Shown piece by piece: positions 2,292 to 54,858 of a stretch of 62,869 nucleotides of DNA. The notes below the pieces were generated by a model. That model saw nothing but the letters and a program-made list of their open reading frames with translations, made no database searches and had not been told where the DNA came from. Each line of letters begins with the position of its first letter. Within the stretch, counting starts at the first letter, position 1. The DNA is from an uncultured Desulfovibrionaceae bacterium. Lineage in GTDB: Bacteria > Desulfobacterota > Desulfovibrionia > Desulfovibrionales > Desulfovibrionaceae. The stretch spans positions 49,680 through 112,548 of the forward strand of contig CAZGAH010000004.1 of assembly GCA_964523295.1 (NCBI GenBank), in the 5' to 3' direction. The position numbers were made by a program, and so were the translations under genes.

Positions 2292-2317
2292 GGCAAGCCG
2301 GATTGCCTGTTTTTTTT
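2292..2317 (+). terminator. terminator-like short hairpin plus T8 run just upstream of the kinase start codon
   Basis: GGCAA-GCCGGA-TTGCC followed by TG and TTTTTTTT (2310-2317), about 35 nt before the ATG at 2352. The stem is only 5 bp, so this is weak. Confidence 0.3.
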
Positions 2318-2351
2318 GTGTCCGAGGTTGAGGTCGAGGTCTCGCTCAGTC

Positions 2352-5090: not shown

Positions 5091-5100
5091 GGATTCCACG

Positions 5101-17673: not shown

Positions 17674-18813
17674 TCAGCTGAACTGCGCAACGGGCAGACG
17701 CACGGTGATCGTTGTTCCGGTCGCTTCCGTTGTTGTCATGGCAATGCTGCCGCCCTGCGTCTCGGCAATGAGCCGGGCCGAGTAGGTGCCGAGTCCGGTG
17801 CCGCGATCCTTGCCCGACGTGGCGTATTTTTCGAAAAAACGCTCCCGGATGGCCTCCGGGACGACGCCGAGATTGTGTATGGCAATGGCGGCCGCGTCGT
17901 CGTACGCGCAGGCGACAGTCACCACGCTGTGCTCCGGCGCTGCCTCGAGGGCATTCTTGATGAGATTGGCAAACATGGAATGACAGAGCAGGGCCTCCGC
18001 CTGAACCACGAATGTATCCGCCTCGCCCGCGTCGCGACCGTCCAGGGAGAGTCTCAGTTCGATGTGCCGCAATTCCAGCACCATCGAAAATTCCTTCCGT
18101 ATCTTGCGCACTATCCTGAGCACATCGACAGACGCCGATCGGCAGACATAGCTGCCGGTCTCCATTTTATACATATCCAGGGCCAGATTGACCATGTCCA
18201 GCATCCGGTAACCCTGCTCCTCGATGAGCTGCAGAATACTGCGATCCTCTTCGTCCAGAATCGTATCGAGCTTGTCCATGAGCAGCTGCGGCAGGTTGAT
18301 TATCGCCGTGATGGGTGATTTGAGGTCGTGTCGGGTAATGCGCTCGACATCCTCGCGCAGCCGCGCGTTTTCCTGAAGAATGTCATTCTGGCGTCGCAGA
18401 TCGCGCCGCGCCTGAAACAAGGCCAGGTGATTGGCGACACGGGCCTTGACAATCGCCGGACTGAAGGGCTTGGGAACATAATCCGCCGCCCCGAGGGCCA
18501 GTCCCTTGACTTCAGCGCCCTCGTCCCCCAGCGCCGTGATGAATATCACGGGAATGTCCTTCAGGCCTTCATCTGCCTTGATCCGGCGACAGACTTCATA
18601 CCCGTCGAGCCCGGGCATCATGATGTCGAGCAATATGAGATCGGGCGGTTCCGCGGCGATGAATCGCAACGCGCGCTCCCCGTCCAGGGCCACGCGCACG
18701 TCGTATTCCGGGTCCAGCAGATTCACCAGCACGTCGATGTTGGCCTTCGTGTCTTCCACGATCAGTATGGTAAAACGCGGCTCGTCAACCATCAGGAAAT
18801 CCTCGATTCGCAA
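17674..18813 (-). CDS. receiver domain fused to a histidine kinase-like core (REC-DHp-HATPase)
   Basis: REC (ILIVEDTKANIDVL, LLDIMMPGLDGY, PKPF), a DHp-like segment ITRHDLKSPITAI, and an ATPase end (GTGLGTYSARLIAE). An alternative start MVDEPRF at 18792 overlaps the upstream stop by 1 nt. The ATG at 18813 would overlap it by 22 nt. Confidence 0.85.
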   Translation of the reverse strand: MRIEDFLMVDEPRFTILIVEDTKANIDVLVNLLDPEYDVRVALDGERALRFIAAEPPDLILLDIMMPGLDGYEVCRRIKADEGLKDIPVIFITALGDEGAEVKGLALGAADYVPKPFSPAIVKARVANHLALFQARRDLRRQNDILQENARLREDVERITRHDLKSPITAIINLPQLLMDKLDTILDEEDRSILQLIEEQGYRMLDMVNLALDMYKMETGSYVCRSASVDVLRIVRKIRKEFSMVLELRHIELRLSLDGRDAGEADTFVVQAEALLCHSMFANLIKNALEAAPEHSVVTVACAYDDAAAIAIHNLGVVPEAIRERFFEKYATSGKDRGTGLGTYSARLIAETQGGSIAMTTTEATGTTITVRLPVAQFS

Positions 18814-21800: not shown

Positions 21801-23492
21801 TTCCTCGCGGGCGCGACGCTCGGCGGTGATATCAAAGGCAAACCCCTCGATGAGTTCTTCACCCGCGTCGTTCCGGGTTATTCTGGCATTGAGGAGCAAC
21901 CAGCGTGCCTCTCCGTCGGCACGCCGGATCCGCAACTCGTAATTGCTCAGGGCGCCCTGCTGCCGCAGCGCCTTCAGCCAGACGAAACGATCCTCGGCCT
22001 GGACGTACAGGGTCTGATCGAGCGCGTCTATGCCCAAGGCTTTCTCGGGCGAGTCGTAGCCCAGAATGCGCGCCCCGGCCGGGTTGATGGCCTCGAAACC
22101 GTGACCGACTCTGGCCTGGAATATCCCCAGCAAGGCGTTCTCGTACAAACGCTGAAAGCTCTTCTCGGCCTTGTGTAACTCCTGGGCCTGCTCGTCAATG
22201 AGCCGCTGAAGCTTTTTGCGTCCCTGGCGAAAAACGAAAAACAGGCAGACGACCAGTACGAGATAGATCATCCCGGCATGGACAAGATGCCCGCGCAGCG
22301 AGGAAACCAGCTCGTTGTATATTTCCGGAAACTCGGCCCAGACCAGAATGCTCGCCACCGGGCCACGCTCTTCGTGGCCCGCGGCGTCAGGCGCCGCGCC
22401 GTGCGCGGGGGTTATAAAAATGGGCAAAGGCTGGATGCCGTAAAGGCGATCCAGGCACATGGTCAGGCTGCCCCGGGCGCGATCGATGAACCGGAAGGTC
22501 TTTCGAGCCTTTTCGCGCTCGGCCTGCTCATCATGCATGGCCTTTGAGAAATCGAAGGGCCCGCGATCCTCCTCGGCGAACATGGTATGGAACTCGGACG
22601 TATCCGCCAGAGCGCGCAGCGGAGTGGAATCCCCGAGCACGACGAAATAGTCTTCGTTGCCGATGCGCAGTTCGGGTTTGCGGGCGACGAAATCATCGGA
22701 GGCGTGATCCCGGGCGTAATCCTTGCGTAACAACAGGGCCGATTCGCAGGAAAAAAAGAGATGTGTTGCCTGCTCGATGCGCTGAAAAACCGTGGACATG
22801 TCCACGCCAAGCTCGATCACGCCAATGACCCGCTCCTCGTCGGCGTCCATGACGTCGAACACGGGCACCACGCTGCGCAATCCCGAGTAGTCGGGCGCAA
22901 TGACAAAGCCGATCTGGGCCTCGCCGCTGCGAAAGGCATCCTGAATCAACAGGTCATTGTATCCGGAAGCAAAGGGCGGCGAGGTGGTGTCGGCGATGGC
23001 AAAGCCCGCCGGCCCGCCTTCAGGACGCGGCAAATCCAGACGAAGCCAGGGTGTCGGGTCTCCGGGCAGATAAACGGCAACATGCCGCCCCTCGTTGAGC
23101 ATGTTGGCCTTGAATCCCCGTCCTCCGGCCCACAGGGCCATGGCCAGCTCGCCGCGCAGCCGCCTCGACTCCCCGCGGGCTACGGGGGAATCGTCCCGGC
23201 TCATTCGGGCCGCCTCGATCAACAGATCGCCCACCTGCGGATTGGTGGCCATGACCTCGCCCCGCCGGGTAAGCTCGCTGCCCAGCCCTTCCACAGCCAG
23301 ATTGGCCCCGGCGCGCAGCCCACCGACCAGCTCCACCGTGCCGATAAACGCTCCGGTCATCGATCGGGCGATGTATTCGTGCAGCGCGAACCCGAAAACA
23401 ATGACGAAAACAACCAGAGAGACCAGGATGAACCAGCGCAAGGGAATCCGATATCCCGGACAATCGCGCTGTCGGCGACGAAACCAACGCAT
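18792..23492 (-). CDS. large hybrid sensor kinase (N-terminal TM-bounded sensor region, several PAS domains, HisKA, HATPase, two receivers, Hpt)
   Basis: Start chosen at MRWFRRRQ (ATG 23490-23492), preceded by GGAGGGGG. The H-box is RMSHEIRTPLNAI and HATPase boxes are NLAGNAVKFT, DTGIGL and GTGLGL. The REC domains begin VLLVDDNP and VLVVEDNA. The Hpt motif is HSMKSVAGTIGA. Confidence 0.9.
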   Translation of the reverse strand: MRWFRRRQRDCPGYRIPLRWFILVSLVVFVIVFGFALHEYIARSMTGAFIGTVELVGGLRAGANLAVEGLGSELTRRGEVMATNPQVGDLLIEAARMSRDDSPVARGESRRLRGELAMALWAGGRGFKANMLNEGRHVAVYLPGDPTPWLRLDLPRPEGGPAGFAIADTTSPPFASGYNDLLIQDAFRSGEAQIGFVIAPDYSGLRSVVPVFDVMDADEERVIGVIELGVDMSTVFQRIEQATHLFFSCESALLLRKDYARDHASDDFVARKPELRIGNEDYFVVLGDSTPLRALADTSEFHTMFAEEDRGPFDFSKAMHDEQAEREKARKTFRFIDRARGSLTMCLDRLYGIQPLPIFITPAHGAAPDAAGHEERGPVASILVWAEFPEIYNELVSSLRGHLVHAGMIYLVLVVCLFFVFRQGRKKLQRLIDEQAQELHKAEKSFQRLYENALLGIFQARVGHGFEAINPAGARILGYDSPEKALGIDALDQTLYVQAEDRFVWLKALRQQGALSNYELRIRRADGEARWLLLNARITRNDAGEELIEGFAFDITAERRAREELTLSEERLQLALEVAGADMWEIDTRSWDYVTPPVRLYEKLGYPPEQTPRSVLDEALFCHPDDYALARKAVGRHLRRETDRFYSEMRVRAASGEWVWIALHGKVLRREDSDVATTLLGLSMDIDERKRAEEEVQRGEAKFRRIIETASEGFLFADPDFVIQEVNAAMLRLLGYTREELLHRHPREFACDETRACIMGRAGVDESGAFESVCVAKDGRRIPMLVNSSHLRDDKGEIIGHVSFLTDITEWKKAEEAMRQARAAAEEASRAKSDFLARMSHEIRTPLNAITGMTMLALETELTARQHDYLSKISVSADSLLRIVNDILDFAKIEAGKLDIEHVEFQLEDVLGNLSNIIALKAEEKNLEILFRTAPDVPHALVGDPHRLTQILVNLAGNAVKFTEQGEVVVSAQLVRELGDEVELGFSIRDTGIGLDAEALERLFQPFQQADGSITRRYGGTGLGLAISKRLVEMMHGKLAAHSVPGKGSVFSFTVQLGSKPCEEDRCYHPPGDLRGLRVLLVDDNPTALDILKETLESFSFRVGVADSGVAALAELDRAQQAGTAYRLLILDQHMPGWDGIETLARIATRFEYTSLPRLLMVGAFGGEDIAARARAVGVTGFVLKPANRSLLFDSIMEAFGKEIARRTRSMSAFTGRRESLQRIRGARVLVVEDNAINRQVATELLQRAGLVVDTAPDGSHGVEMACNGEYDVVLMDIQMPDMDGYETTRRIRERGIATPIIAMTAHAMAGDRDRSLHEGMVAHVTKPVDPGELFRVLLEWIPPGQRPEPRTEMPLLAVDESAASSLPDVAGVDTAVGLERVGGNLDLYRKLLHDFRQDHGNDATLVTEALEAGDRALARRLVHSMKSVAGTIGAGRLATAAAGLEALLAGEEQASGAPELAEFLEALNALLDALATLPPLLPQSQPVQEGSLEELAAGLRKLLEHLSKHRAGKANKAWEQLRTRDWPLFLNTDIMALGRLVAEYRFDEAEPLTRDLIQRCESRIS

Positions 23493-23687
23493 GGCAACCC
23501 CCTCCATACTGGACGTGACGCGATGGGCACGGGGATTGTGCAGGGAATGGCGCCGTATGGCAATGGGGAAAAAACGGACTTCGGGGAGAGCGACGCAGGG
23601 CATCTTTTGCCAGCCCTGCTCAACGATGAAGCCGTACGACCGCTGCCAGCGTCGAGAAAACTTCCATGCGCCGGCTCGAATTAGGAT

Positions 23688-43090: not shown

Positions 43091-43146
43091 TCAAGAAAAG
43101 ACGAACAAGACACGTTAGACAAGCTACATGGAGGGGCTCAAGAGGC

Positions 43147-45261
43147 ATGGCTCAACTGGAACATATAGAGGCTATTGAGAAGAGGCTGTGGACAGCCGCT
43201 GATACACTTCGGGCCAATTCGAATTACGCCAGCAACGAGTATTTCCTGCCCGTCATGGGCCTTATCTTTCTTCGCCACGCCTACAGCCGGTTTCTGGCGG
43301 TGAAAGACGACATCGAAGCGAACCTTCCCATGCGCGGCGGAAAATCCAGGCCGCTGACCAAGGAAGACTTCTCGCAGAAAAGTTCCATCTTCCTCCAGCC
43401 TCAGGCGCAGTTCGACGCCCTGGTTACGCTCACGGATAGCGACGATCGGGCCAAGGCCCTTATCGAGGCCATGGAATCCATCGAATCCGATTACGAGAGC
43501 CTGCGCGGCGTCCTGCCCAAGAACGAATACCAGGAACTGGACAACCAGGTTCTGGGGCAACTGCTGCGAACCCTGAACCCGGATGAGCTGAAGCGGGTGA
43601 AGGGAGATGTCTTTGGCCGCATCTACGAATATTTTCTGACCCAGTTTGCCGATCAGAAGGCGCATGACGGCGGCGAGTTCTTCACGCCCATTTCCCTGGT
43701 CTCCTTGATTGCGAACGTCCTTGAGCCGAGCCATGGCACTGTCCTTGATCCGGCGTGCGGCTCCGGGGGCATGTTCGTGCAAAGCGCCCGCGTGGTTGAG
43801 CGGCAACACCAGAACCCCAACGAGAAGCTGACCTTTCGGGGCCTGGAGAAGAATGCCACCACCATCAGGCTGGCAAAGATGAATCTCGCGGTTCATGGCC
43901 TGGAAGGCGACATCCAGAAGGCCATCACCTATTATGAGGACCCGCACGAGATGCTCGGCAAGGCCGCGTACGTCATGGCCAATCCCCCCTTCAACGTGGA
44001 CGAGATCGACGCGGACAAGGTCAAGACCGATCCGCGGCTTCCATTCGGTCTGCCGGGCGTGAACAAGAAGAGCAAGGTCTCCAACGGCAACTACATCTGG
44101 ATCAGCTATTTCTACAGCTACCTGAACGAGACCGGACGCGCAGGCTTTGTCATGTCCTCCCAGGCCTCGAGTGCGGGTCGGGATGAGGCCAGGGTCCGCC
44201 AGAAGCTTGTGGAGAGCGGCGACGTTGACGCCATGGTCGCCATCCGGTCGAACTTTTTTTACACCCGCACCGTGCCCTGCGAACTGTGGTTTCTGAATCG
44301 CGCCAAGCCCGCGGAGCACAAAGACAAGGTGCTCATGATCGACGCGCGGAGCATCTACCGCAAAGTCACGCGCAAGATTTACGACTTCAGCCCCGAGCAG
44401 GAGCAGAATATCCTCGCGATTGTCTGGCTCTACCGTGGGCAGATGGAGAAGTATCTCGATCTGGTTGCCGGGTATTGCCAGCGGGTGCTTCATGAGGCCG
44501 AAGGCTGCTTCGCCGGCCAGGGGGGAAATGGCGAGGCCGTCGAACCGTTGCCCGAGTTTACGGCGTCCCTGGATACGTTGCTGGCCGCCATGAAGCCCTT
44601 TGTGCAAACCCTTGCTGCGGACGCGGCCCATGCGGAGCCGATCAAGGAGTACGAGACCGCACTGGCCGCTTTCCATGCCGATGTGGACGACTTCAAGGCC
44701 GCCATTGGCGAGCAGGTGGAGACATGTAAAACCCGGGGCACCAGCAATGGAAAGCTGAAGCAGGCGGTCCAGCGCCTTGCCCCGCTTGCCGAAGCAAGCC
44801 GTGATGTGGTCAAGCAGACCGACCTGCTCTACAAACTGGCCTGCCGCCTCGTCGAGACCTGCGAGACCGGGTGCGCGGCCCGCGGCAGCGACTCCTGGGC
44901 CAGCCGGGACATTTCCCGCGCCCGTAAGACAGCGGATCAGGCCCGGCAATTGGCCGTGGAGCAACTCAAGCTGGTTCGCTACTTCCACCGCCACGCCCAC
45001 TGGCTGACCGAGCGCTTCCCCGAGGCGCAACTCCGCGACGTAGAAGGCTTGGTCAAGCTCGTGGACCGTGCCGAGATCAAGGCCAACGATTGGAGTCTGA
45101 CGCCGGGGCGTTACGTCGGCGTCGCCCCGGAAGAGGTGGACGAGGATTTCGACTTTGAAGAAGCCCTCCGGGACATCCATGTGGAACTGCAAGACTTGAA
45201 CGCCGAGGCCGTGCACCTGGCAGCGACCATCAAGAAGAATTTTGAGGAGCTGGGGATATGA
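43147..45261 (+). CDS. hsdM: Type I restriction-modification system, DNA methyltransferase subunit (long C-terminal extension)
   Basis: The N-terminal HsdM block is LWTAADTLRANSNYASNEYFLPVMGLIFLRH. Motif I is VLDPACGSGGMF and motif IV is VMANPPFN. At 704 aa it has a helical C-terminal extension. Confidence 0.95.
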   Translation: MAQLEHIEAIEKRLWTAADTLRANSNYASNEYFLPVMGLIFLRHAYSRFLAVKDDIEANLPMRGGKSRPLTKEDFSQKSSIFLQPQAQFDALVTLTDSDDRAKALIEAMESIESDYESLRGVLPKNEYQELDNQVLGQLLRTLNPDELKRVKGDVFGRIYEYFLTQFADQKAHDGGEFFTPISLVSLIANVLEPSHGTVLDPACGSGGMFVQSARVVERQHQNPNEKLTFRGLEKNATTIRLAKMNLAVHGLEGDIQKAITYYEDPHEMLGKAAYVMANPPFNVDEIDADKVKTDPRLPFGLPGVNKKSKVSNGNYIWISYFYSYLNETGRAGFVMSSQASSAGRDEARVRQKLVESGDVDAMVAIRSNFFYTRTVPCELWFLNRAKPAEHKDKVLMIDARSIYRKVTRKIYDFSPEQEQNILAIVWLYRGQMEKYLDLVAGYCQRVLHEAEGCFAGQGGNGEAVEPLPEFTASLDTLLAAMKPFVQTLAADAAHAEPIKEYETALAAFHADVDDFKAAIGEQVETCKTRGTSNGKLKQAVQRLAPLAEASRDVVKQTDLLYKLACRLVETCETGCAARGSDSWASRDISRARKTADQARQLAVEQLKLVRYFHRHAHWLTERFPEAQLRDVEGLVKLVDRAEIKANDWSLTPGRYVGVAPEEVDEDFDFEEALRDIHVELQDLNAEAVHLAATIKKNFEELGI

Positions 45262-46721
45262 GCATTGCCGAACTGCTCACGGCCGACGAGGGCAAGACCC
45301 TGGAATTCAAGCAGGACCTCTCGTCTCCGCGTAATCTCCTCAAGACGCTGGTGGCCTTTGCCAATACTGCCGGCGGCAGGATCGTCGTCGGCGTGGCGGA
45401 CAGGACGCGGAAACCGGTGGGGATCGACAACCCGCTGGATGAAGAAGAGCGGCTCTGTAACCTGATCGCCGACTCCATCAGCCCTCGCCTGGTGCCCAAT
45501 ATCGAAATGACCACGGTCGCGGGGAAAACCCTGCTGGTCATCGAAGTATTCCTGAGCAGTTCCCGGCCCCATTATCTGCGCTCCGAGGGGCAGGAATCCG
45601 GCGTCTATGTCCGGCTCGGCTCCACCAACCGCCAGGCCGACCGGGAACTGGTCGGCGAACTGCGCCGCTCCGTTGAAGGCGTTGCCTTTGACCAACTGCC
45701 CATGCCGGAGTTGTCCATCGACGATCTGGATATCGAGGCTGCCCAAGCTGCCTTTGGCACCAGCCGCCAGCTGGATGCGCAAGCCTTGCTCACCTTGAAA
45801 TTGCTGACGCCCCATCAAAATAAGCTTGTGCCGACGCGGGGTGGAATGCTCCTCTTTGGCAGGCAGCGTACGCAGCATTTTTCCGATGCCTGGGTTCAAT
45901 GCGGCCGTTTTTTGGGCACCGAAAAAATCGACATTTTTGACCATATCGACATCGACGTCCCGCTGCCACAGGCTGTTGACGAGGTTATGCTGTTTCTGAA
46001 AAAGCATGCGTATCGCGGCGCCGATATCTCCGAGGTGCGCCGCAAGGATGTCTGGAGCATCCCCCTGGGGATTTTGCGCGAGATGATCGTCAACGCCCTG
46101 GTGCACAGCGATTACTCACAGCGTGGCGCACCCATCCGGGTTGTCTTTCTCGATGACCGCATCGAGGTGGAAAGCATGGGCATTCTTCTCCCCGGCCTGA
46201 CCATCGACGAGATGAAACAGGGCTCCTCCCGCATCCGCAATCCGGTTATCGCCCGCGTATTCAAGGAGCTCGGCCTGATAGAGCAATGGGGAACCGGCGT
46301 GCGCCGCATCTTTAGGGAAGCTCGGGAACTGGGCCTGCCGGAGCCTGAGATTGAGGAAATTGCCTTGCGTCTGCGCTTCACCGTGTATCTGGCGCAACCG
46401 CATCGCATCCCGGCGCAGAGGCCCCAGGCAGGGTCGGAAGAACGCGCCGAGGCAGCAACCCAGCAAGTAACCCAGCAAGTAACCCAGCAACTAACCCAGC
46501 AAGTAAGAAGGTTGTTGGCCGTTTGTGTCGGCGAAGTAAGCAGGACGGCGCTCATGAACGCTGTCGGCCTGAAGGATCGGGTCACGTTTTCCAAACACTA
46601 CCTGGAACCGGCGCTCGGGGGAGCGTTCGTCGAAATGACCCAGCCCGATTCCCCCACAAGCCCAACCCAGAAATACCGACTGACCGAAAAAGGCCGGCGT
46701 GTGGTGGAGGACGGGAGATGA
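45258..46721 (+). CDS. AlbA_2 (Schlafen-type divergent-AAA) plus HATPase_c_4-like plus C-terminal wHTH protein, of the kind often annotated RecG-like putative transcriptional regulator
   Basis: The ATGA overlap with the hsdM stop is at 45258-45261. The N-terminus is EGKTLEFKQDLSSPRNLLKTLVAFANTAGGRIVVGV (AlbA_2 signature as I recall it). The mid region is LREMIVNALVHSDYSQRGAPIRVVFLDDRIEVES. The C-terminal region looks wHTH-like. Confidence 0.85.
   Translation: MSIAELLTADEGKTLEFKQDLSSPRNLLKTLVAFANTAGGRIVVGVADRTRKPVGIDNPLDEEERLCNLIADSISPRLVPNIEMTTVAGKTLLVIEVFLSSSRPHYLRSEGQESGVYVRLGSTNRQADRELVGELRRSVEGVAFDQLPMPELSIDDLDIEAAQAAFGTSRQLDAQALLTLKLLTPHQNKLVPTRGGMLLFGRQRTQHFSDAWVQCGRFLGTEKIDIFDHIDIDVPLPQAVDEVMLFLKKHAYRGADISEVRRKDVWSIPLGILREMIVNALVHSDYSQRGAPIRVVFLDDRIEVESMGILLPGLTIDEMKQGSSRIRNPVIARVFKELGLIEQWGTGVRRIFREARELGLPEPEIEEIALRLRFTVYLAQPHRIPAQRPQAGSEERAEAATQQVTQQVTQQLTQQVRRLLAVCVGEVSRTALMNAVGLKDRVTFSKHYLEPALGGAFVEMTQPDSPTSPTQKYRLTEKGRRVVEDGR
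46458..46505 (+). repeat. 12-bp in-frame tandem repeat x4 (ACCCAGCAAGTA, third unit ...CTA) encoding TQQV TQQV TQQL TQQV
   Basis: Read directly. It lies in the linker before the C-terminal wHTH-like domain of the AlbA_2 gene. Confidence 0.9.
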
Positions 46722-46777
46722 AGGATTGTGAAAGCGCCTGTTTCGTTTGCTGCGCAAGGCGGGCGTGCAGCGTTTCC

Positions 46778-46855
46778 GGGTTGGAGGACTTGAAGGGCAA
46801 GGCGGGGCAGCTCGCAGCGCCCATCAAGAAAAATTTTGAGGTGCTGGGAGTATGA
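46778..46855 (+). pseudogene. relic of a second hsdM 3' end (last 25 codons plus stop), directly fused to the hsdS start
   Basis: The codon-for-codon alignment with 45184-45261 is ELQDLNAEAVHLAATIKKNFEELGI* versus GLEDLKGKAGQLAAPIKKNFEVLGV*. By my hand count about 61 of 78 nt are identical. Both ends carry the same ATGA stop/start overlap. Confidence 0.8.
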
Positions 46856-48003
46856 GCGCTGAATCATACACTCTTTTTAAGCTAATAGAGTTGCATGGCG
46901 GTCTAATTCAGACTGGGCCTTTTGGATCCCAGTTGCATCAACACGAATATGTCGAATCAGGCGTCCCTGTTGTCATGCCAAAAGACATCGCTGATGGCCG
47001 CGTCAATGATGCAGGCATAGCAATGGTTTCTGAAAACAAAGCTAACGCATTGGCGCGTCACAAGCTCAAGAAAGGCGACATTGTTTTCCCAAGAAGAGGG
47101 GACATTAGAAAATGTGCCCTCATTGGCGAAGACCAGGATGGGTACTTATGCGGCACTGGCTGTTTGAAAATTACTCTTCCAAAACAGGTTTATTCTCCGC
47201 ATTTTCTGTACTACTATTTAGTTCTTCCAAAAGTTGGAGAATGGCTGGAAAGAAATGCCGTTGGAACGACAATGCTCAATCTCAATACGTCTATTCTTGG
47301 TGGCGTATCCATCCCAGACAAGAGCATTGATGAACAGAATGAAATAGTCTCTATCCTCTCCGCCTACGACGACCTCATCGAGAACAACCGCCGCCGCATC
47401 CAGTTGCTCGAAGCGTCGGCGCGGCTGCTCTACAAGGAATGGTTCGTGCGGCTTCGCTTCCCCGGGCATGAGCATGTCACGGTTGTGGATGGGGTGCCGG
47501 AGGGGTGGGAGAAAAAAACGCTCGGAGAAGTGGCTCCACTCAGCTATGGGAAGGCGTTGAAAAAGGAATTACGAATTCCTGGCCCTTTCCCCGTTTATGG
47601 TTCGAGCGGCTACGTGGGGAGCCACAATAAACCCTTGGTGAAAGGCCCTGGTATCATCCTCGGCAGAAAGGGAAATTTTGGCAGCGTGTTTTGGAGTTCA
47701 AAAGACTTCTTTCCCATAGATACAGTTTACTTTTTACCAAATGAGAAAGCGAATCTGTACCTGTACTATGTCCTCATGCACATGTCATTTATTAGCACCG
47801 ATGTCGCAGTCCCTGGTTTAAACCGTGATTTCGCGCATAGCAGAAAGCTGCTCATCCCAGACGACAAGATCATGATGCTTTTTGATGAACAGGTCATATC
47901 AATTCATAGCCAGATTGACTGTCTCAATGATTACAACACGTCTCTTGCCCAAGCCCGAGACCTCCTTCTCCCCCGGCTTATGAATGGCGAGGTGGCTGTA
48001 TGA
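46852..48003 (+). CDS. hsdS: Type I restriction-modification system, specificity subunit (two TRDs)
   Basis: The central conserved region is ILSAYDDLIENNRRRIQLLEASARLLYKEWFVRLRFPGHE and the distal one is LAQARDLLLPRLMNGEV. Two variable TRDs flank them. Confidence 0.92.
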   Translation: MSAESYTLFKLIELHGGLIQTGPFGSQLHQHEYVESGVPVVMPKDIADGRVNDAGIAMVSENKANALARHKLKKGDIVFPRRGDIRKCALIGEDQDGYLCGTGCLKITLPKQVYSPHFLYYYLVLPKVGEWLERNAVGTTMLNLNTSILGGVSIPDKSIDEQNEIVSILSAYDDLIENNRRRIQLLEASARLLYKEWFVRLRFPGHEHVTVVDGVPEGWEKKTLGEVAPLSYGKALKKELRIPGPFPVYGSSGYVGSHNKPLVKGPGIILGRKGNFGSVFWSSKDFFPIDTVYFLPNEKANLYLYYVLMHMSFISTDVAVPGLNRDFAHSRKLLIPDDKIMMLFDEQVISIHSQIDCLNDYNTSLAQARDLLLPRLMNGEVAV

Positions 48004-50432
48004 TCACAAATTTTAAATCCATTGGCAATTTCGCCGTATTCAACAATTTTGACTGGGATAAAGAAGTCTGCGACGAAAACGGCAATGTGCGGAACTTCCA
48101 AGCCATCAATGTCATCTACGGCAGGAATTATTCCGGCAAAACTACCCTTTCACGTATTCTGCGCGCCATGGAGACAGGAGAGATATCTGATAAATTTGAA
48201 AATCCATCATTTAGTGTGGCTCTCGCCGATGGAAGTCAGGTAACGGAGTCCTCTTTATTGGGGCATGGTAAAACCGTTCGGGTTTTCAACGATGATTTCA
48301 TCCGTGCCAATCTGCGCTTCATCGCCAACCCGGATGACAACATCGAGCCATTCGCAATCCTTGGCGATGACAACAACAAGATCGAAATAGAAATTGAAGC
48401 ACTTGAAACAGAGCTCGGTTCAAAGGAAGTAGGGAACGAGACAGGGCTATATGCCCAAATAACAGCAGCTGTCGCAGAGTACACGAAAACCTTCCAAGCA
48501 CACCAGAAAAGCAATGATAGCCTTGAAAGACAGCTTAAAGAAAAGGCTACGGGCAGAGAAATCGGTATCAAGTACAAGCCGGAACGCTTTGGTGATCAAA
48601 ACTATAACATTCAAAAACTCAAAAACGACATTGAAAAGGTCCTGAACTCAAACTACCGAAAACCAACCGAGGAACTACTGGCTCACTACGAAAGGTTAAT
48701 TTTAGAGAATACGCTCCAACCGATCTCACCATTCCATGCACTAGAACTTAAATTTGAAGGCTTGGCCACTGAAACCGAAGGTCTTGTTACAAAGAAGATA
48801 AGCGGGGCGGACAAGATTGAAGAACTGGTGAAGGATGCTGTCCTGAACCGCTGGGTGAATGAAGGCCGTACTCACCATAAAGGCAAACGAACCAAATGCG
48901 CGTTTTGCGACAATCCCATCTCGGAAGATCGTTGGCAGGAACTTGAAAAGCATTTTGATGAAGAGTCAGCGCGGCTTGAAAAGGATATTGATGCGTTGAT
49001 TGTCAGGATTGAAATTGAGAAGAACAAGGCAAGCACAGTGCTGTCCATCGACAAATCACTTTTTTATTCCAATTTTCACAACCCTCTTGATGAATTAGCT
49101 AGAACACTAACAAATGCCGTTAATCAGTATGGGAATTGCCTGGAAAAGCTAGTTGCTCAGCTGAAGACCAGGAAAGAAAACATTCTGAATCAGAAAGCAT
49201 TTGAAAAGCCCGATGACGCCTCTGCCTATTTATTGGATGTGTGTAGTGTGTATGAATTGATCCATGCTAAATCTGATAATTTTACAAACTCGTTGCGAGT
49301 TGAGCAGACAAGCGCCAAGGCAGCTTTGCGATTTAAGGAAGTCTCGGACTACCTTATCACAATCGGATACCAGGAACAGCAATCCTCAATTGACGAGTTC
49401 AAGGAGAAACTCGAGGGAATCAAGCAGAAGAAAGATCAAAACGAGGACTCTATCCGCTCTAAAAAGGAACTGCTCGCCTCCAAGAAACGAGAATTGAATG
49501 ACGAGGAAAAAGGTGCCAAAAAGGTTAATGAATACCTGAACAACTTCTTTGGGCACCATTTTCTCACGCTTGAGGCCAAAAAGGATGAGATATCCGAAGA
49601 AGAATCAAAACGAATCCGTTTTGAAGTCATTCGTGATGGCAAAAAGGCCCATCATTTGAGTGAAGGGGAATGCAGCCTGCTAGCTTTTTGCTATTTTCTT
49701 GCAAAACTCGACGATATAGACACCCGGGATTCAAAGCCGATCATCTGGATTGACGACCCCATCTCATCGCTCGACGGGAACCACATATTTTTTGTCTACA
49801 GCCTGCTTAGCACCGAGATTGTATCAACAGGAAAGTTCGAGCAAGTGTTTATATCGACACACAACCTTGACTTTTTAAAGTACTTAAGGAGATTGAATGG
49901 TTCTTTCCTTGACCCCGATGGAAAGTCAAAGAACTATCAGAAAAGCTACTTTATGGTTGTCCGGCAAGACAAAAGGTCCACGGTTGGAGTCATGCCGAAT
50001 TACTTGAAGGAGTATGGAACCGAATTCAACTACCTCTTTCACCAAATACACAAATGCGCTGAAATTGAAACGGTTGACGACACGAACTACGTAACTTTTT
50101 ACAACTTCGCAAACAACGCCAGAAAGTTCTTAGAGATCTACTTGTATTACAAATATCCAGATCAGGGAATGAAGGAAGAAGAAAGGCTACGTCTATTCTT
50201 CGGTGATGCAAAAATCCCTTCGGTTTTAACCGACAGAATATGTAATGAATACTCACATCTTTGCGGAGTTTTCGAGCGGGGCTCAACGCCGGTTGAAGTC
50301 CCTGAGATGCGAACGACAGCGAGGCAAATCATTGAAAAGCTCAAGGAGGACAAAGCTCAATATTCCGCCTTGCTGAAAAGTATCGGGGTAGCTGAAAAGG
50401 CGGAGGCAGAATCATGCATGGAATCAAATTGA
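48000..50432 (+). CDS. AAA_13-family ABC/Rad50-like ATPase with a CxxC hook in a long coiled-coil insert and a PrrC/RloC-like C-terminal region (RloC-like putative anticodon nuclease)
   Basis: The ATGA overlap with the hsdS stop is at 48000-48003. Walker A is GRNYSGKT (48120-48143) and the CxxC motif is KCAFCDNP (Cys codons at 48897-48908). The signature-like segment is LSEGECSLLAF, Walker B is IIWIDDPISSLD, and the H-loop is FISTHNLDF. The C-terminal ARKFLE ... NEYSH gives an R-x3-E ... H arrangement. Confidence 0.8.
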   Translation: MITNFKSIGNFAVFNNFDWDKEVCDENGNVRNFQAINVIYGRNYSGKTTLSRILRAMETGEISDKFENPSFSVALADGSQVTESSLLGHGKTVRVFNDDFIRANLRFIANPDDNIEPFAILGDDNNKIEIEIEALETELGSKEVGNETGLYAQITAAVAEYTKTFQAHQKSNDSLERQLKEKATGREIGIKYKPERFGDQNYNIQKLKNDIEKVLNSNYRKPTEELLAHYERLILENTLQPISPFHALELKFEGLATETEGLVTKKISGADKIEELVKDAVLNRWVNEGRTHHKGKRTKCAFCDNPISEDRWQELEKHFDEESARLEKDIDALIVRIEIEKNKASTVLSIDKSLFYSNFHNPLDELARTLTNAVNQYGNCLEKLVAQLKTRKENILNQKAFEKPDDASAYLLDVCSVYELIHAKSDNFTNSLRVEQTSAKAALRFKEVSDYLITIGYQEQQSSIDEFKEKLEGIKQKKDQNEDSIRSKKELLASKKRELNDEEKGAKKVNEYLNNFFGHHFLTLEAKKDEISEEESKRIRFEVIRDGKKAHHLSEGECSLLAFCYFLAKLDDIDTRDSKPIIWIDDPISSLDGNHIFFVYSLLSTEIVSTGKFEQVFISTHNLDFLKYLRRLNGSFLDPDGKSKNYQKSYFMVVRQDKRSTVGVMPNYLKEYGTEFNYLFHQIHKCAEIETVDDTNYVTFYNFANNARKFLEIYLYYKYPDQGMKEEERLRLFFGDAKIPSVLTDRICNEYSHLCGVFERGSTPVEVPEMRTTARQIIEKLKEDKAQYSALLKSIGVAEKAEAESCMESN

Positions 50433-50463
50433 TGGGAGATTCGAGCAAAGGAGGGGACATCCG

Positions 50464-53400
50464 GTGACGCCCAGTTCCTACACCGAAGACACCCTCGTCC
50501 AACAAACCACAGCCGACTACCTGGAACGCCAGCTCGGGTGGAATTCGGTCTACGCCTTCAACACCGAGACCTACGGGCCTGACGGGACCTTGGGGCGGCA
50601 ATCGGACAAGGAGGTCGTGCTGACGCGGTACCTGCGCGAGGCGCTGGTCAAGCTCAATCCTGGCCTGCCGGATTCCGCATACGACGATGCCGTCCGCCAG
50701 ATGACCGCCATCGTGGCCAGCCAGACCATGCTGGCGACCAACCGCGAGAAATACGAACTCATCACCAACGGGGTCCAGGTCACGTTCCGCAACGCCAAAG
50801 GAGAACGGGTACGCGCGCGGTTGCGGGTATTGGATTTTGCCGAGCCCGCAAACAACCACTTTTTGTGCGTACGTGAGCTGTGGGTCAAGGGAGACCTCTA
50901 TCGGCGGCGGGCGGATATCGTCGGCTTCGTCAATGGGCTCCCCGTGCTGTTCATGGAACTGAAGAACGTCAGCAAAAACATTCGTGCGGCCTACGAAAGG
51001 AACTTTTTGGACTACAAGGATACCGTCCCGCACCTGTTCCATCACAACGCGGTTGTCGTCCTGGCGAACGGAGTGGACGCCAGGCTTGGATCGGTCTCCA
51101 GCAAGTTCGAACACTTCAACGACTGGAAACGACTGGAAGAAGACGAGCCCGGAGCCGTGGACATGGAGACCTTGCTCAAGGGCGTTTGCGACAAGGACAA
51201 CCTTATAGACCTCATTGAAAATTTTATTCTTTTTGACGAATCGACAGGGGAGCCCAGGAAAATCCTTGCGCGAAACCACCAGTTTCTCGGCGTGAACCGG
51301 GCGATCGAGGCTGTCAAGGACAGAGCGAATCGCCAGGGAAAACTTGGCGTGTTCTGGCACACGCAGGGGGCGGGAAAGAGCTATTCCATTGTCTTCTTTA
51401 CGCGCAAGGTACACCGCAAGCTAGGGGGCAACTTCACCTTCGTGGTGCTCACGGACAGAGAAGACCTTGACACGCAACTCTACAAAACCTTTGCCGGGTG
51501 CGGCGTGGTAGATAATGACCGCGATCCCTGCCGCGCCGCAAGCGGCCAGCATTTGAGTTCCTTGTTGGCAGAGCACAAAGCCTATGTCTTCTCCTTGATC
51601 CAAAAGTTCAATCAGGAAGTGGACTCAATAGAAGGCTACACCGCCAGAAACGATGTCATCGTCATCACGGACGAAGCCCACCGGACGCAGTATGGCATGT
51701 TGGCCCTGAATTTGCGTAACGCCCTGCCCAATGCAAGCTACATCGGGTTCACAGGGACACCTCTGTTTTCCAATGATGAGATTACCCGTCATGTCTTTGG
51801 GGACTATGTCTCCACCTACGATTTCCAACGCGCCGTCGAAGACAAGGCCACGGTCCCCCTTTACTACGACGCACGAGGCGACAAGCTCAGGATTACCACT
51901 GAAAGTCTGAACGAAAGAATTGCTGAAAAACTTGAAGAGATTGAGATAGATAACATTGATGTAGAGCAACGTCTCGAAAAGGAGCTGAAGCGCGACTATC
52001 ATGTCATCACAGACACAAAGCGATTGGATCAAATAGCCCGGGATCTCGTTCTTCATTATACGAGGGCGTGGGAAACTGGCAAGGCCATGTTGATCTGCAT
52101 CGACAAGCTTACCTGCGTCCGCATGTACGAGCTGATTCTCGGCCACTGGAATCAGCGCGTAGCTGCGCTTGACGTGGAACTGAAGTCGGCTTCAGATGAA
52201 CAGGATGAATCGTACCGACGCAGGCAGATTCAGTGGATGAAAGAAACCGTCGTCGCCGTGGTTGTCAGCGAAGAGCAAGGGGAGGTTGACAAATTCAACA
52301 CGTGGGGCCTGGACATCAAGCCGCACCGCCGGCTGATCAAAGAAGGCATTGAGCTTCCGGAATTCATGAGAAGCAAACCGCAATTCCGAAACAGACAGCG
52401 GATGGGACTGGAAGAAGCCTTCAAGATCGAGGAGCACCCGTTCCGTATCGCCATTGTCTGCGCCATGTGGCTGACGGGGTTTGACGTTCCCTGCCTTTCC
52501 ACGCTGTACCTGGACAAACCGCTCAAGGCCCATACCCTGATGCAGGCCATTGCCCGTGCGAACAGGGTCAACGAAGGCAAGAACAATGGTCTCATCGTTG
52601 ACTATTGCGGCATCCTGAAGAACCTCCGCAAGGCCCTGGCGACCTTTGCAGGACGAGGCGATACCGGCCATGGTGGAAAGGATGAAGAACGAGACCCGGT
52701 CAGGCCGGATGAGGAGCTTCTTGCGGAACTGTCTGAAGCGATCGCCTTTGTTCGCGCCTTCCTGGTCAATAGTGGCGCCTCCTTGGACAACATCATTATC
52801 AAGGCAGGGTTCGAGCGGAACGCCGCCATACTTGCCGCGAAAGAAGCCGCCAATGAGAATGATCAGTCCCGCAAACGTTTCGAGGTCATGTGCAGGGAAG
52901 TATTCAAAAAATTCAAAGCGTGCATCAACGTCAAAGACATAAACAACTACCGGGCCGACTATAACGCCATCAATGTGGTGTACAAGAGCTTGCTGCAGGA
53001 TCGAGAGCAGGCGGACATATCCCATATCATCCGCAGGCTTCATGACGTGGTTGATGAAGCCATCGAGACGGATTCCATGCAGTCCGGCCATGAAAGCGAG
53101 CCGTATGACATGAGCAAGGTCGATTTCGATCAGCTCAGGAAAGAATTTGAAAGGAGCCCAAGGCAGCACACAACGGTCCAGAACCTGAAAGACGCTATTG
53201 AGCAACGAGTGAACCGTCTTCTCTTGCAGAATCCCCTGCGAACTGATTTTCAGCAACATTACGAGGACATTGTCGCCCAGTATAATCGAGAGAAAGATCG
53301 TGCGACCATTGAAAAAACCTTCGAAGCCCTGATCAAGTTTGTGAAGACTCTCAGCGAAGAGGAAACACGGGCGGTTCGGGAAGGGCTCTCCGAGGAATCT

Positions 53401-53712
53401 TTGGCCATATTCGATCTGTTGAAAAAGGACACTCTTCGTGTTGTCGATGTAAAACGAATTAAAAAGATCGCTGTGGACTTGCTTCACAGCCTTAAATCAG
53501 AAAAACTCAAAATAGATAGCTGGCGTGAAAAGGAAACAACTCGTGACGCAGTGAGAGTTGCCATCAGAAATTATCTTTGGGATGATGAAATTGGCCTTCC
53601 AGTAAATTTATATAACGAGACAGAGGTTGAGGAAAAAGCAAACCTGGTTTTTTCCCACGTTTTTCGAGTGTATCCGACAGTTCCATCCCCATACTATGCA
53701 ACGGTTATGTAG
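50464..53712 (+). CDS. hsdR: Type I restriction-modification system, endonuclease/translocase subunit
   Basis: The GTG start at 50464 is preceded by AGGAGGGG. The N-terminal HsdR block is YTEDTLVQQTTADYLERQLGW. Helicase motifs are FWHTQGAGKS, VIVITDEAHRTQYG, FTGTP and MQAIARANR. The C-terminal block is of the NPLRTDFQQHYEDIVAQYN type. Confidence 0.95.
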   Translation: MTPSSYTEDTLVQQTTADYLERQLGWNSVYAFNTETYGPDGTLGRQSDKEVVLTRYLREALVKLNPGLPDSAYDDAVRQMTAIVASQTMLATNREKYELITNGVQVTFRNAKGERVRARLRVLDFAEPANNHFLCVRELWVKGDLYRRRADIVGFVNGLPVLFMELKNVSKNIRAAYERNFLDYKDTVPHLFHHNAVVVLANGVDARLGSVSSKFEHFNDWKRLEEDEPGAVDMETLLKGVCDKDNLIDLIENFILFDESTGEPRKILARNHQFLGVNRAIEAVKDRANRQGKLGVFWHTQGAGKSYSIVFFTRKVHRKLGGNFTFVVLTDREDLDTQLYKTFAGCGVVDNDRDPCRAASGQHLSSLLAEHKAYVFSLIQKFNQEVDSIEGYTARNDVIVITDEAHRTQYGMLALNLRNALPNASYIGFTGTPLFSNDEITRHVFGDYVSTYDFQRAVEDKATVPLYYDARGDKLRITTESLNERIAEKLEEIEIDNIDVEQRLEKELKRDYHVITDTKRLDQIARDLVLHYTRAWETGKAMLICIDKLTCVRMYELILGHWNQRVAALDVELKSASDEQDESYRRRQIQWMKETVVAVVVSEEQGEVDKFNTWGLDIKPHRRLIKEGIELPEFMRSKPQFRNRQRMGLEEAFKIEEHPFRIAIVCAMWLTGFDVPCLSTLYLDKPLKAHTLMQAIARANRVNEGKNNGLIVDYCGILKNLRKALATFAGRGDTGHGGKDEERDPVRPDEELLAELSEAIAFVRAFLVNSGASLDNIIIKAGFERNAAILAAKEAANENDQSRKRFEVMCREVFKKFKACINVKDINNYRADYNAINVVYKSLLQDREQADISHIIRRLHDVVDEAIETDSMQSGHESEPYDMSKVDFDQLRKEFERSPRQHTTVQNLKDAIEQRVNRLLLQNPLRTDFQQHYEDIVAQYNREKDRATIEKTFEALIKFVKTLSEEETRAVREGLSEESLAIFDLLKKDTLRVVDVKRIKKIAVDLLHSLKSEKLKIDSWREKETTRDAVRVAIRNYLWDDEIGLPVNLYNETEVEEKANLVFSHVFRVYPTVPSPYYATVM

Positions 53713-53824
53713 GCTTGTTTAATATTAATATGACAATATGCAATATGGCGTCTGACCAAGCTGCCATCTAGATTTAAATAATAGCACACCTTAATCCGGC
53801 TTATTATTTCCTCTTAAAACCACC

Positions 53825-53975
53825 CTTTCGCCTTCACCCCCCCCATTTACAATTACCACATCCACAAACCGACTTCGCTCTACGCGCGAAACACGAAAAA
53901 ACCGTCCGCAATCTGCCAACGCCAAGAGACAAGAGACAAAAGCCAAGAGCTTAACACGCTCCGACCCCACCCCCC
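53825..53975 (+). repeat. repeat copy 3: miniature, internally deleted copy of the same element (5' ~90 bp plus 3' ~25 bp)
   Basis: 53825-53917 aligns with 42515-42608. Shared blocks are TTTGCCTTCA, ATTTAC-ATT-CCACATC, CGACTTCGCT, CGCGCGAAACACG and CCGCAATCTGC. 53951-53975 (TTAACACGCTCCGACCCCAC) aligns with 43054-43078 (TTGACTCGATCCGACCCCAAC). It ends at the stop codon of the MBL gene. Confidence 0.65.
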
Positions 53976-53976
53976 C

Positions 53977-54858
53977 TCAGAGAACCACTTCCAGTCCCTC
54001 ATAGGCGAGCCCGGCTTCCAAACCCAGGGCGAGGCCGGTCTCGCGTACGCGTTCGTGTATTGCGTCCAGGGCGCTGTCCGGACGCGTGGGTTCGTGGTGC
54101 GTCAGCAGCAGTGACTTTGCGCCGGACTCTTTGGCCAGAGCCAGGCCTGCTTCGTGCGTGGAATGGCCCCAGCCGATCTTGCCCGGGTATTCGCTTTCGG
54201 TATACTGCGCGTCGGCGATGAGCAGGTTGCAGCCGTGGATGAAGTCGACGAGCTGTTGTCGTTTTTCGACGATCCACTTTTCGTATTCGGAATAATCCTC
54301 GTCCTCGGGCGCGTAGATATTGGAGTGTTGTTCGTGATCGCCGGTGTAGAAGAGCGTCTTGCCGTTGCTCTCGATCCGGTATCCGAGCGTAAACACGGGA
54401 TGGTTCATGACGATGGGCGTGATACTGGCCGAGCCGACGGACACGGTCTCGCCTTCGTGCAGCGAGGCGTAACTGAGCGTGGCCTTGAGTTCGGCCTCCC
54501 TGACCGGGAAGTAGCGGTATTCCATCTGCACCGAGAGCACGTCTTTAATCCCCAGCATGGTCACGGGATCGGAGGCGCCGTAGATGGAAAGTTGATTGCC
54601 CGGGACGAAAAGGGGAATGAAAAAGGGCAGGCCCTGGATGTGATCCCAGTGCGTGTGCGTGATGAACAAGGAGGCCGTAATCGGCATCTTTCGCGCCAGC
54701 AGCAGCCCGAGGGGGCGGATTCCGGTGCCGGCGTCAAGGATGATGCAATCGCCTTCGTCGGTGCGCACTTCCAGACAGGGCGTATTGCCCCCGTACTTGA
54801 CGGTGTCCGGCCCGGGCGTGGGAATTGAGCCGCGCACGCCCCAGAATTTTACGTACAT
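53977..54858 (-). CDS. MBL-fold metallo-hydrolase
   Basis: The N-terminus is MYVKFWGVRGSIPTPG...KYGGNTPCLEV and the metal motif is ITHTHWDHIQG (HxHxDH). Later residues are GDHE and LTHHEP. Confidence 0.85.
   Translation of the reverse strand: MYVKFWGVRGSIPTPGPDTVKYGGNTPCLEVRTDEGDCIILDAGTGIRPLGLLLARKMPITASLFITHTHWDHIQGLPFFIPLFVPGNQLSIYGASDPVTMLGIKDVLSVQMEYRYFPVREAELKATLSYASLHEGETVSVGSASITPIVMNHPVFTLGYRIESNGKTLFYTGDHEQHSNIYAPEDEDYSEYEKWIVEKRQQLVDFIHGCNLLIADAQYTESEYPGKIGWGHSTHEAGLALAKESGAKSLLLTHHEPTRPDSALDAIHERVRETGLALGLEAGLAYEGLEVVL

Follow-up and report, generated by a model that had tools for sequence, protein, structure and literature searches.

Do defence genes that lie inside a restriction-modification (R-M) operon work as parts of the R-M complex, or as separate systems carried along with it? 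The question is raised by a type I R-M operon at positions 43147-53712 of a 62,869-nucleotide stretch of DNA from an uncultured Desulfovibrionaceae bacterium (contig CAZGAH010000004.1); the whole stretch is called the window here. One additional gene, which encodes a Schlafen-type protein of the Schlatpase family, lies between hsdM and hsdS, and another, which encodes the zinc-hook ATPase RloC, between hsdS and hsdR. We think it probable that the locus is an R-M operon with two independent embedded predicted tRNases, which would act as layered abortive-infection back-ups and not as obligate partners. The family identities of the two proteins lead to the prediction that both are self-targeting tRNA nucleases. 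This prediction was absent from a preliminary description of the same DNA. The operon comprises the following features:

43147-45261 (+): hsdM, type I m6A methyltransferase subunit, 704 aa with a long C-terminal extension; GC content 0.600
45258-46721 (+): Schlatpase-A gene (SLFN/AlbA_2 nuclease domain, GHKL ATPase domain, C-terminal winged helix), 487 aa
46718-46855 (+): bridge open reading frame (ORF) of 45 codons, spanning a supposed 130-nt gap; the hsdM 3' end recurs in degenerate form in its 3' half (about 46781-46855)
46852-48003 (+): hsdS, specificity subunit with two target-recognition domains (TRDs), 383 aa; GC 0.481
48000-50432 (+): rloC, encoding an ABC-ATPase / zinc-hook coiled-coil / predicted anticodon-nuclease protein, 810 aa; GC 0.435
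50433-50463 (+): rloC-hsdR spacer of 31 nt, with a GGAGGGG Shine-Dalgarno-like run ahead of the hsdR GTG
50464-53712 (+): hsdR, restriction/translocase subunit, 1082 aa, GTG start

The ORF listing contains the five genes on one strand and in exactly the order that the preliminary description gave, and its statement that M, S and R are intact holds up: Pfam, PADLOC and NCBIfam models identify the genes, and every motif that can be checked is present. Motif positions in HsdM, HsdR, RloC and Schlatpase-A were located by regular expressions. HsdM matches Pfam HsdM_N and N6_Mtase and, over its full length, PADLOC MTase_I (PDLC03035, E = 3.5e-263); it features motif I (DPACGSGG, residues 201-208) and motif IV (NPPF, 279-282). 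HsdS matches Pfam Methylase_S in two stretches and PADLOC Specificity_I (E = 7e-74). HsdR matches Pfam HSDR_N, SWI2_SNF2/ResIII, T1R_D3-like and T1RH-like_C, PADLOC REase_I and TIGR00348 (hsdR; 487 bits, which exceeds the cut-off), and contains D150...E165-L-K167, GAGKS (302-306) and DEAH (403-406). With three subunits, methyltransferase motifs I and IV, two TRDs, and an HsdR that combines a PD-(D/E)xK nuclease with an SF2 helicase, these genes form an intact type I R-M operon, for which methylation and restriction activity are predicted.

ATGA overlaps join the hsdM stop to the Schlatpase-A start (45258-45261) and the hsdS stop to the rloC start (48000-48003). These overlaps and the 31-nt gap ahead of hsdR are present in the sequence as first described. 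Of the two short gaps that had been claimed, the 130-nt one does not stand, as it holds the 45-codon bridge ORF with an ATGA overlap at each end. By base composition, rloC is the most foreign gene in the operon (GC 0.435, compared with 0.60 for hsdM and the Schlatpase-A gene and 0.593 for the window). A promoter and terminator scan gave counts at shuffle expectation and says nothing either way on internal promoters.

The embedded genes

The gene at the hsdM-hsdS junction had been called AlbA_2/Schlafen-like, which its Pfam domains and nuclease motif confirm. Schlatpase-A contains SLFN_AlbA_2 (PF04326, residues 11-127), HATPase_c_4 (PF13749, 290-374) and Fic-like_C (PF21247, 414-476), each with an E value of about 1e-25. 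The nuclease motif E11-GKTL-E16-F-K18 has the form E(x)4ExK; the protein also has a SAFAN-type Schlafen box (V32-AFAN-36) and, in the GHKL domain, E275-x3-N279 and GTGV (345-348). All 20 homologues aligned (64-84% identity) share E11, E16, K18, F34/A35/N36, E275 and N279. In a PDB profile search, the Schlafen cores 5yd0 and 7fex matched the N-terminus, as did 2kyy; 3lmm matched the middle, and the winged helix of 4rgl matched the C-terminus (E = 9e-19). E11, E16 and D48 align with the Schlafen-13 core (5yd0), D48 with what we take to be its third acidic residue. The AlphaFold2 (AF2) model of Schlatpase-A has a mean pLDDT of 63.5, falling below 50 in the SLFN domain, and was set aside. In the linker ahead of the winged helix (residues ~403-420), QQVT is repeated imperfectly over a short stretch (QQVTQQVTQQLTQQV); Schlatpase-A homologues and the Fic protein 4rgl have related Q/E-V-T/S repeats, variable in length, in this place.

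The name Schlatpase was given in a 2026 preprint to proteins combining SLFN_AlbA_2 with the PF13749 GHKL domain, mostly followed by a short C-terminal helix-turn-helix (HTH); they make up 58.6% of 103,533 prokaryotic Schlafen proteins, and some 60,000 non-redundant stand-alone Schlatpase sequences have been cited. Cash and SLFN-pAgo cleave tRNA with their SLFN domains, leading to abortive infection; the GHKL domain drives tetramerisation. According to a 2026 paper in Nature Communications, a CRISPR-associated Schlafen cuts tRNA via an E-D-K pocket (E17, D22, K24); the same paper describes a cluster of Schlafens with ATPase and DNA-binding domains as 'tightly associated' with restriction-modification. 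Schlatpase-A has the motif spacing of CbCash E17/D22/K24, and its GHKL E...N pair is equivalent to RzAgo E314/N318 by motif spacing, without structural superposition. It resembles the SLFN-pAgo RzAgo and the R-M-associated 'Cluster 7' Schlafens (Weickert et al. 2026) in domain order, E(x)4(D/E)xK motif, SAFAN box, GHKL E...N pair, short C-terminal HTH and tight R-M association, but has no Argonaute, CARF/Csx15 or NACHT sensor module. Having both Pfam domains in order, the C-terminal HTH, the E(x)4(D/E)xK and SAFAN motifs and the GHKL E/N pair, the AlbA_2 gene encodes a Schlatpase, and we predict that it is a tRNase.

Could Schlatpase-A instead be a controller-type DNA-binding protein, or an ATP-dependent chromatin protein, that sets R-M expression and is not a nuclease effector? 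Its C-terminal winged helix (Fic-like_C, matching the C-terminal domain of 4rgl at the E value given above), its position at the operon head, and source annotations reading 'predicted HTH transcriptional regulator / RecG-like' would suit this role. However, the invariant E(x)4ExK motif and the GHKL catalytic E/N pair would be superfluous in a repressor, the characterised prokaryotic SLFN domains with an E(x)4(D/E)xK motif are tRNases, and the gene follows hsdM and does not precede the operon. We regard a purely regulatory function as very improbable.

The second embedded gene had been described as RloC-like. Davidov & Kaufmann (2008) defined RloC by ABC motifs of the PrrC type, a CX2C zinc hook within a coiled-coil insert, the triad Arg-X3-Glu-X36-52-His, with Ser often preceding His, and a length of 658-897 aa, about twice that of PrrC. 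The 810-aa protein in the window has all of these features, and the first description stands. Its ABC-ATPase motifs are Walker A GRNYSGKT (41-48), LSEGE (553-557), IWIDDP (582-587), SSLD and STHN (619-622); the zinc-hook motif is CAFC (300-303), and the anticodon nuclease (ACNase) triad is R708-KFL-E712-x40-S752-H753. G41-T48 (except T49-class positions), C300 and C303, the Walker B residues D585 and D586, H621, and R708, E712, S752 and H753 are invariant in an alignment of 18 sequences. The PADLOC check on the window that the preliminary description proposed returned MTase_I, Specificity_I and REase_I for the R-M genes and, for the AAA_13 protein (Pfam AAA_13, E = 2.7e-128), PDC-S06 with E = 0 and a match of the PrrC model to residues 501-783. 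The AF2 model of RloC is confident in the helical insert only, with helices 119-288 and 309-517 (block pLDDT mostly 72-94) and CAFC at the turn that joins them; confidence is poor in the heads and in the ACNase domain. A PDB sequence search with an RloC profile returned nothing at E <= 0.01. Homologues of 63-80% identity are found in Desulfovibrionales, Geobacterales, Nitrosomonas, Legionella, metagenome-assembled genomes (MAGs) affiliated with Bacteroidota, and others, and several carry the source name 'wobble nucleotide-excising tRNase'. The AAA_13 gene encodes a full RloC orthologue, with zinc binding and excision of the tRNA wobble nucleotide predicted from its sequence.

In Campylobacter jejuni, rloC genes were named as restriction-linked ORFs. 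The window shares with the C. jejuni rloC/E/G type I loci a minority, hsd-embedded arrangement that was first noticed in that species. Geobacillus kaustophilus RloC is an anticodon nuclease under zinc-hook control; the spacing in its triad (R692/E696/H737) is also x40, and its hook residue C291 compares with C300/C303 here. In Acinetobacter baylyi, a DNA-break inducer is reported to activate RloC. The window RloC differs from known RloCs in its membership of a tight clade, with 63-80% identity between phyla, whose ancestral neighbour was a Schlatpase paralogue; as far as we found, this pairing is not described in the RloC literature. PrrC in EcoprrI (the Escherichia coli prr locus), the classic embedded guard, likewise lies between hsdS and hsdR, and shares with our protein the layout of ATPase and ACNase and the R/E/H triad. 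PrrC, however, has 341-416 aa and no coiled-coil/zinc-hook insert, compared with 810 aa and an insert of ~400 aa here, and it is always linked to R-M and silenced by it, whereas the RloC family is mostly unlinked and outlives hsd loss. By its insert and double size, the AAA_13 protein is not a PrrC, though PrrC-like in its predicted working.

Two slots and a relay ORF

The bridge or relay ORF (46718-46855) connects the Schlatpase-A gene to hsdS: its ATG overlaps the Schlatpase-A stop and its TGA overlaps the hsdS ATG, in both cases as ATGA. JGI gene calling also lists a gene of 45 aa here. Over its final ~75 nt, which include the ATGA shared with the hsdS start, the supposed gap repeats the 3' end of hsdM as a degenerate direct copy. 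Up to the stop codon, the gap ends in APIKKNFEVLGV and hsdM in ATIKKNFEELGI; the bridge ORF translation ends in LEDLKGKAGQLAAPIKKNFEVLGV and the HsdM tail in LQDLNAEAVHLAATIKKNFEELGI. The duplicate holds the ribosome-binding region of hsdS. An ATGA-ORF-ATGA bridge of 37-45 codons is also present in L084, L085, L088, L094, L143 and L173 (L numbers are our handles for loci), making seven loci with the window. Among these relatives the N-terminal halves have diverged past recognition, and the HsdM-tail-like C-terminus is kept. A shuffled gap of matching length stays open in 13% of trials; given that the frame, the length class and both overlaps are kept across diverged versions, an accident is unlikely.

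Megablast of the operon against plasmids gave a single partial match, to hsdM of an E. coli plasmid. In this relative (HsdM and HsdR both 63% identical), hsdM and hsdS overlap directly and there is no Schlatpase, which is the predicted pre-insertion state. We infer that the Schlatpase gene entered at the extreme end of hsdM, duplicating its tail (~75 nt), and that the insertion is old. The duplicate may have been retained because it carries the translation-initiation region of hsdS and relays coupled ribosomes. In L016 (Thalassotalea; positions 580-5714), two HsdM-like genes flank a Schlatpase gene in the order M-Schlatpase-M-S-R-RloC, a larger-scale version of the hsdM duplication relic in the window.

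The R-M backbone of the window is shared by L084, L085, L088, L094, L113, L130, L141 and L143. HsdM is mostly 77-78% identical in this series (up to 84-88% over parts), and 77-79% when L084, L088, L130, L141, L143 and the conjugative-element locus L167 are compared; HsdR is 71-76% identical to that of the backbone relatives, and 72-76% in those contigs of the series that extend far enough. HsdS is merely 30-39% identical to HsdS of most of them, which is normal TRD turnover. A Schlatpase, 59-80% identical to Schlatpase-A, is present at the hsdM-hsdS (M/S) junction of all sampled members. The cargo between hsdS and hsdR (S/R) varies:

L088: IetA and IetS
L094: SIR2-APAZ and short pAgo
L130: pAgo_II, Aga_SIR2 and a 1219-aa protein
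L143: GajA and GajB (Gabija)
L113: a second Schlatpase
E. coli plasmid: RecQ-like and DprA-like genes

Fragments of hsd genes remain at several junctions: the window keeps an hsdM tail, L094, L130 and L172 keep hsdR heads, and L174 keeps an hsdS tail. On this comparative evidence, the R-M backbone has two cargo slots, with a constant Schlatpase at M/S (slot 1) and exchangeable defence cargo at S/R (slot 2).

The 1219-aa ORF beside pAgo_II and Aga_SIR2 in L130 (9341-12997) has no Pfam or PADLOC match, and the hsdR 5' relic of that locus (9192-9398) lies just upstream of it. In L086, another backbone relative, a PD-(D/E)xK protein is encoded between the Schlatpase gene and hsdS (1768-2901; PADLOC candidate PDC-S02, E = 1.6e-151), which shows that slot 1 can accept further cargo too.

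Cargo that differs between loci, together with junction relics pointing to exchange by recombination, would fit pure hitch-hiking, with embedded genes that are unrelated in function to R-M or to each other, sit in the operon only for co-transfer and expression, and are perhaps inactive in one or both cases. The foreign GC of rloC, the frequent decay of a second Schlatpase (see below) and the 'selfish benefit' argument of Payne et al. (2024) point in the same direction. Yet both embedded genes are full length, with intact catalytic and nucleotide-binding residues and 60-85% identity across phyla; conservation of the relay ORF suggests selection for translating the whole string, and Schlatpase-A is kept in every sampled backbone member. 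Hitch-hiking of this kind is, in our judgement, decidedly improbable.

Other RloC and Schlatpase loci

To place the two genes in a wider context, we used iterative hidden Markov models on an RloC-centred sample of 80 loci (one genome per species, best of 439 matches) and a Schlatpase-centred sample of 80 metagenome contigs; an earlier census by tblastn only had under-detected divergent Hsd genes and is superseded. In the first sample, hsd genes adjoin rloC in 25 of 64 informative loci, typically as M-S-RloC-(x)-R and frequently with a 4-nt hsdS/rloC overlap; the literature has RloC 'rarely linked' to R-M (8/72). A Schlatpase is present in seven of the 80 RloC loci and absent from 73, and five of the seven also have hsd genes. 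Full Schlatpases by Pfam occur in four RloC loci (L016, L027, L028 and L056). The order in L056, from an Acholeplasmataceae MAG, is M-Schlatpase-S-RloC-R, identical to the window. The Schlatpases of the distant loci with all three components are only ~30% identical to Schlatpase-A. The triple combination of R-M, Schlatpase and RloC recurs in at least four other lineages, which points to independent assembly. It had been put forward as an uncharacterised three-layer combination; this is correct as far as experiments go, but the combination is not confined to the window, and the R-M link of each component has already been published.

RloC was found in none of the 80 Schlatpase-centred contigs. 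Genes of hsd type are present on 38 of them; of 62 informative upstream neighbours of the Schlatpase gene, 17 are hsdM, and of 63 downstream ones, 10 are hsdS. With 0/80 Schlatpase contigs containing RloC and 73/80 RloC loci without a Schlatpase, we rejected RloC and Schlatpase-A as an obligate pair.

The gene 3' of rloC is heterogeneous: SbcD/Metallophos-like in 8 of 51 loci, DUF2130 in four, RhuM in three, followed by HsdR, Fic, Schlatpase and others. L005, L006, L007, L010 and L013 are among the eight loci in which this gene encodes a co-oriented calcineurin-like phosphoesterase (for example, L005:12402-13727), and five of the eight have SbcD_C. The phosphoesterase would be an Mre11/SbcD-like partner for the Rad50-like RloC; the 2008 paper reported no Mre11/SbcD-type partner in the cases examined there.

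Eight close relatives of the window RloC (72-80% identity) were compared by tblastn. Several of these loci carry a different Schlatpase, Schlatpase-B, or its remains:

L167 (conjugative element): M (79% identical)-S-RloC-Schlatpase-B-R (74%); no Schlatpase at the M/S junction
L173: Schlatpase-A (80%)-hsdM-tail relic-S-RloC-79-aa C-terminal relic of Schlatpase-B-R; the architecture nearest to the window
L171: Schlatpase-B internally deleted
L172: N-terminal relic of Schlatpase-B, then DUF6932, GmrSD and more
L165: RloC-Schlatpase-B, no hsd genes; flanked by an HsdM N-terminal relic (7767-7945)
L169: RloC-Schlatpase-B (frameshifted), no hsd genes; HsdM N-terminal and HsdR C-terminal relics (7767-7945, 11847-12101)
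L174: RloC alone on a mobilisable element; hsdS 3' relic upstream

Schlatpase-B of L167 has 473 aa with an HTH_24/MarR-type helix and is 27% identical to Schlatpase-A of the window; Schlatpase-B of L088, which overlaps the hsdR start, is 91% identical to that of L167. In L165 and L169, the R-M genes appear to have been deleted and the RloC-Schlatpase-B pair kept, a history paralleled by the hsdR relic noted in 2008 beside G. kaustophilus rloC. That RloC outlives the R-M genes is the opposite of what would be expected for an obligately R-M-silenced toxin. Schlatpase-B is frameshifted, internally deleted or lost in six of the eight close loci, the window included. The simplest reading is that an RloC-Schlatpase-B cassette once filled slot 2, that a dispensable Schlatpase-B was lost in the window, and that the pair, or RloC alone, can outlive R-M.

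The 31-nt spacer of the window is the site at which the closest relatives carry Schlatpase-B or its relics. We considered the spacer as a Schlatpase-B scar and rejected it, as the only shared sequence is the hexamer TGGGAG, too short to count; no recognisable Schlatpase-B remnant is present in the window. The seemingly stand-alone RloC-Schlatpase-B pairs of L165 and L169 sit among housekeeping genes, with glycine cleavage / PfkB on one side and a formyltransferase in L165.

Back-ups or partners, and the surroundings of the operon

From the tight coupling of the genes, the preliminary description took the two inserts for likely stoichiometric partners, or else sensors of R-M integrity. In such an arrangement, RloC and/or the Schlatpase would bind HsdMSR, be held latent in the way that EcoprrI holds PrrC, and fire on phage anti-restriction; the inserts might partner the complex or each other. 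Besides the PrrC precedent, several observations favour it: translational coupling is unbroken from M through the Schlatpase and relay ORF to S and RloC; RloC occupies the exact position of PrrC, and 4-nt hsdS-rloC overlaps recur across many lineages; the Schlatpase is constant in the backbone, and a Schlatpase-type protein fused to HsdS has been reported; and in the closest relatives a Schlatpase paralogue or relic lies directly 3' of rloC. The comparisons argue against it. In sister operons the S/R slot is filled by unrelated autonomous systems, so that the cargo is interchangeable, and hsd linkage is limited to the minority of RloC loci given above, in our sample as in the literature. RloC and Schlatpase-B have been kept together in L165 and L169, where hsdM and hsdR survive just as relics, and L174 has RloC by itself on a mobilisable element; Schlatpase-B itself has decayed in most close loci, and RloC and the Schlatpase mostly occur without each other. 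The suggested partnership or sensor role is not supported by these data, and we consider a guard arrangement unlikely.

A more elaborate scheme, which we find doubtful, would make the backbone a dedicated two-slot carrier of defence cargo. Its cargo would be swapped by homologous recombination via the flanking hsd ends, leaving relics, and the hsdM-tail relic would have been exapted as a relay ORF to hsdS. The Schlatpase would be a fourth R-M component, a tRNase arm triggered by the complex, and RloC would depend on a Schlatpase, Schlatpase-A having made Schlatpase-B redundant in the window.

An R-M operon with two independent embedded back-ups remains our preferred reading, and the mechanism could be as follows. 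HsdM2S1R2 would methylate self DNA and cut unmodified incoming DNA. Two tRNA nucleases, latent and self-targeting, would be expressed together from this operon and act as independent abortive-infection back-ups. RloC, as a Rad50-like zinc-hook ATPase, would respond to DNA damage or breaks, possibly also to loss of restriction or restriction alleviation, and once activated would excise the tRNA wobble nucleotide. ATP binding to the GHKL domain of the Schlatpase would assemble active SLFN oligomers that cleave tRNA, and its winged HTH might plausibly read DNA or the R-M complex as the trigger. Layered defence was also the candidate reading in the first description, and it agrees with published embedded systems and with the prokaryotic Schlafen tRNases.

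Several points weigh against this reading. The nuclease activity, substrates and triggers of both inserts are extrapolated. The active-site geometry of Schlatpase-A is taken from sequence alignment, the AF2 model of the SLFN domain being poor, and operon status is deduced from the gene overlaps, the promoter and terminator scans being at chance. A Schlatpase paralogue or relic lies directly 3' of rloC in six of eight loci of the closest RloC clade (72-80%), and in the broader sample Schlatpases are somewhat commoner in RloC loci that have hsd genes (5/25) than in the others (2/39; Fisher p = 0.10). On these grounds, RloC may be functionally linked to a Schlatpase. The Schlatpase-HsdS fusion and the constancy of Schlatpase-A in the backbone leave open that the Schlatpase works with the R-M complex.

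How does the operon compare with known embedded systems? The 'guilt by embedding' study of Payne et al. (2024) listed 17,432 genes that lie within BREX, DISARM and type I R-M systems, from which the PADLOC PDC families derive, and TgvAB is a tested two-gene system within a Vibrio cholerae type I operon (VPI-2). As in the embedded systems of type I R-M, BREX, DISARM and Hma, co-oriented defence genes are nested here in a multigene system, and the AAA_13 protein belongs to one of the PDC families (PDC-S06). Unlike in the published cases, two separate slots are filled at once, and the relatives show slot-specific turnover, junction relics and a relay ORF. Both kinds of gene, and their nesting in restriction operons, have already been described, and the locus is a clean, fairly ordinary example. 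What goes beyond the published accounts that we found is incremental: the two-slot backbone with cargo swapping, the junction relics and the conserved relay ORF. If the operon works as we infer, a single transcription unit would combine a DNA-level barrier with two independent tRNA-level suicide switches, a compact form of layered immunity. It would also be a test bed for what triggers the abundant stand-alone Schlatpases, and for whether RloC reads the state of the neighbouring restriction enzyme or DNA damage alone. The comparative series shows in concrete terms how restriction operons exchange defence cargo, adding an instance and leaving current concepts unchanged.

The operon is surrounded by ordinary chromosomal genes: hybrid histidine kinases, AcrB, a methyl-accepting chemotaxis protein, a major facilitator superfamily transporter, Band_7 and an ABC ATPase. 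The same locus is present, identical, on a JGI metagenome contig. A tRNA scan found no tRNA in the window, and hence no tRNA-linked island boundary, and no integrase adjoins the operon in the window flanks. Directly 3' of the hsdR stop, positions 53713-53850 are sharply AT-rich (GC ~0.40), and the flanking GC then returns to ~0.60; this could be the edge of an acquired segment. The next gene past hsdR (53977-54858, -) encodes a metallo-beta-lactamase fold, assigned by Pfam on the identical JGI contig to Anti-Pycsar_Apyc1 / Lactamase_B_2; it may be a plain housekeeping hydrolase of that fold. An antisense ORF of 692 aa (43138-45216, -), wholly nested in hsdM, was rejected as a gene and treated as a shadow ORF, being on the opposite strand of the 60% GC hsdM. 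Finally, and unrelated to the operon, the window encodes two very large hybrid sensor kinases of 1445 and 1603 aa (4966-9303, +, and 18792-23603, -), both with multiple receiver domains, one with dCache/HAMP/GAF and the other with PAS/Hpt.

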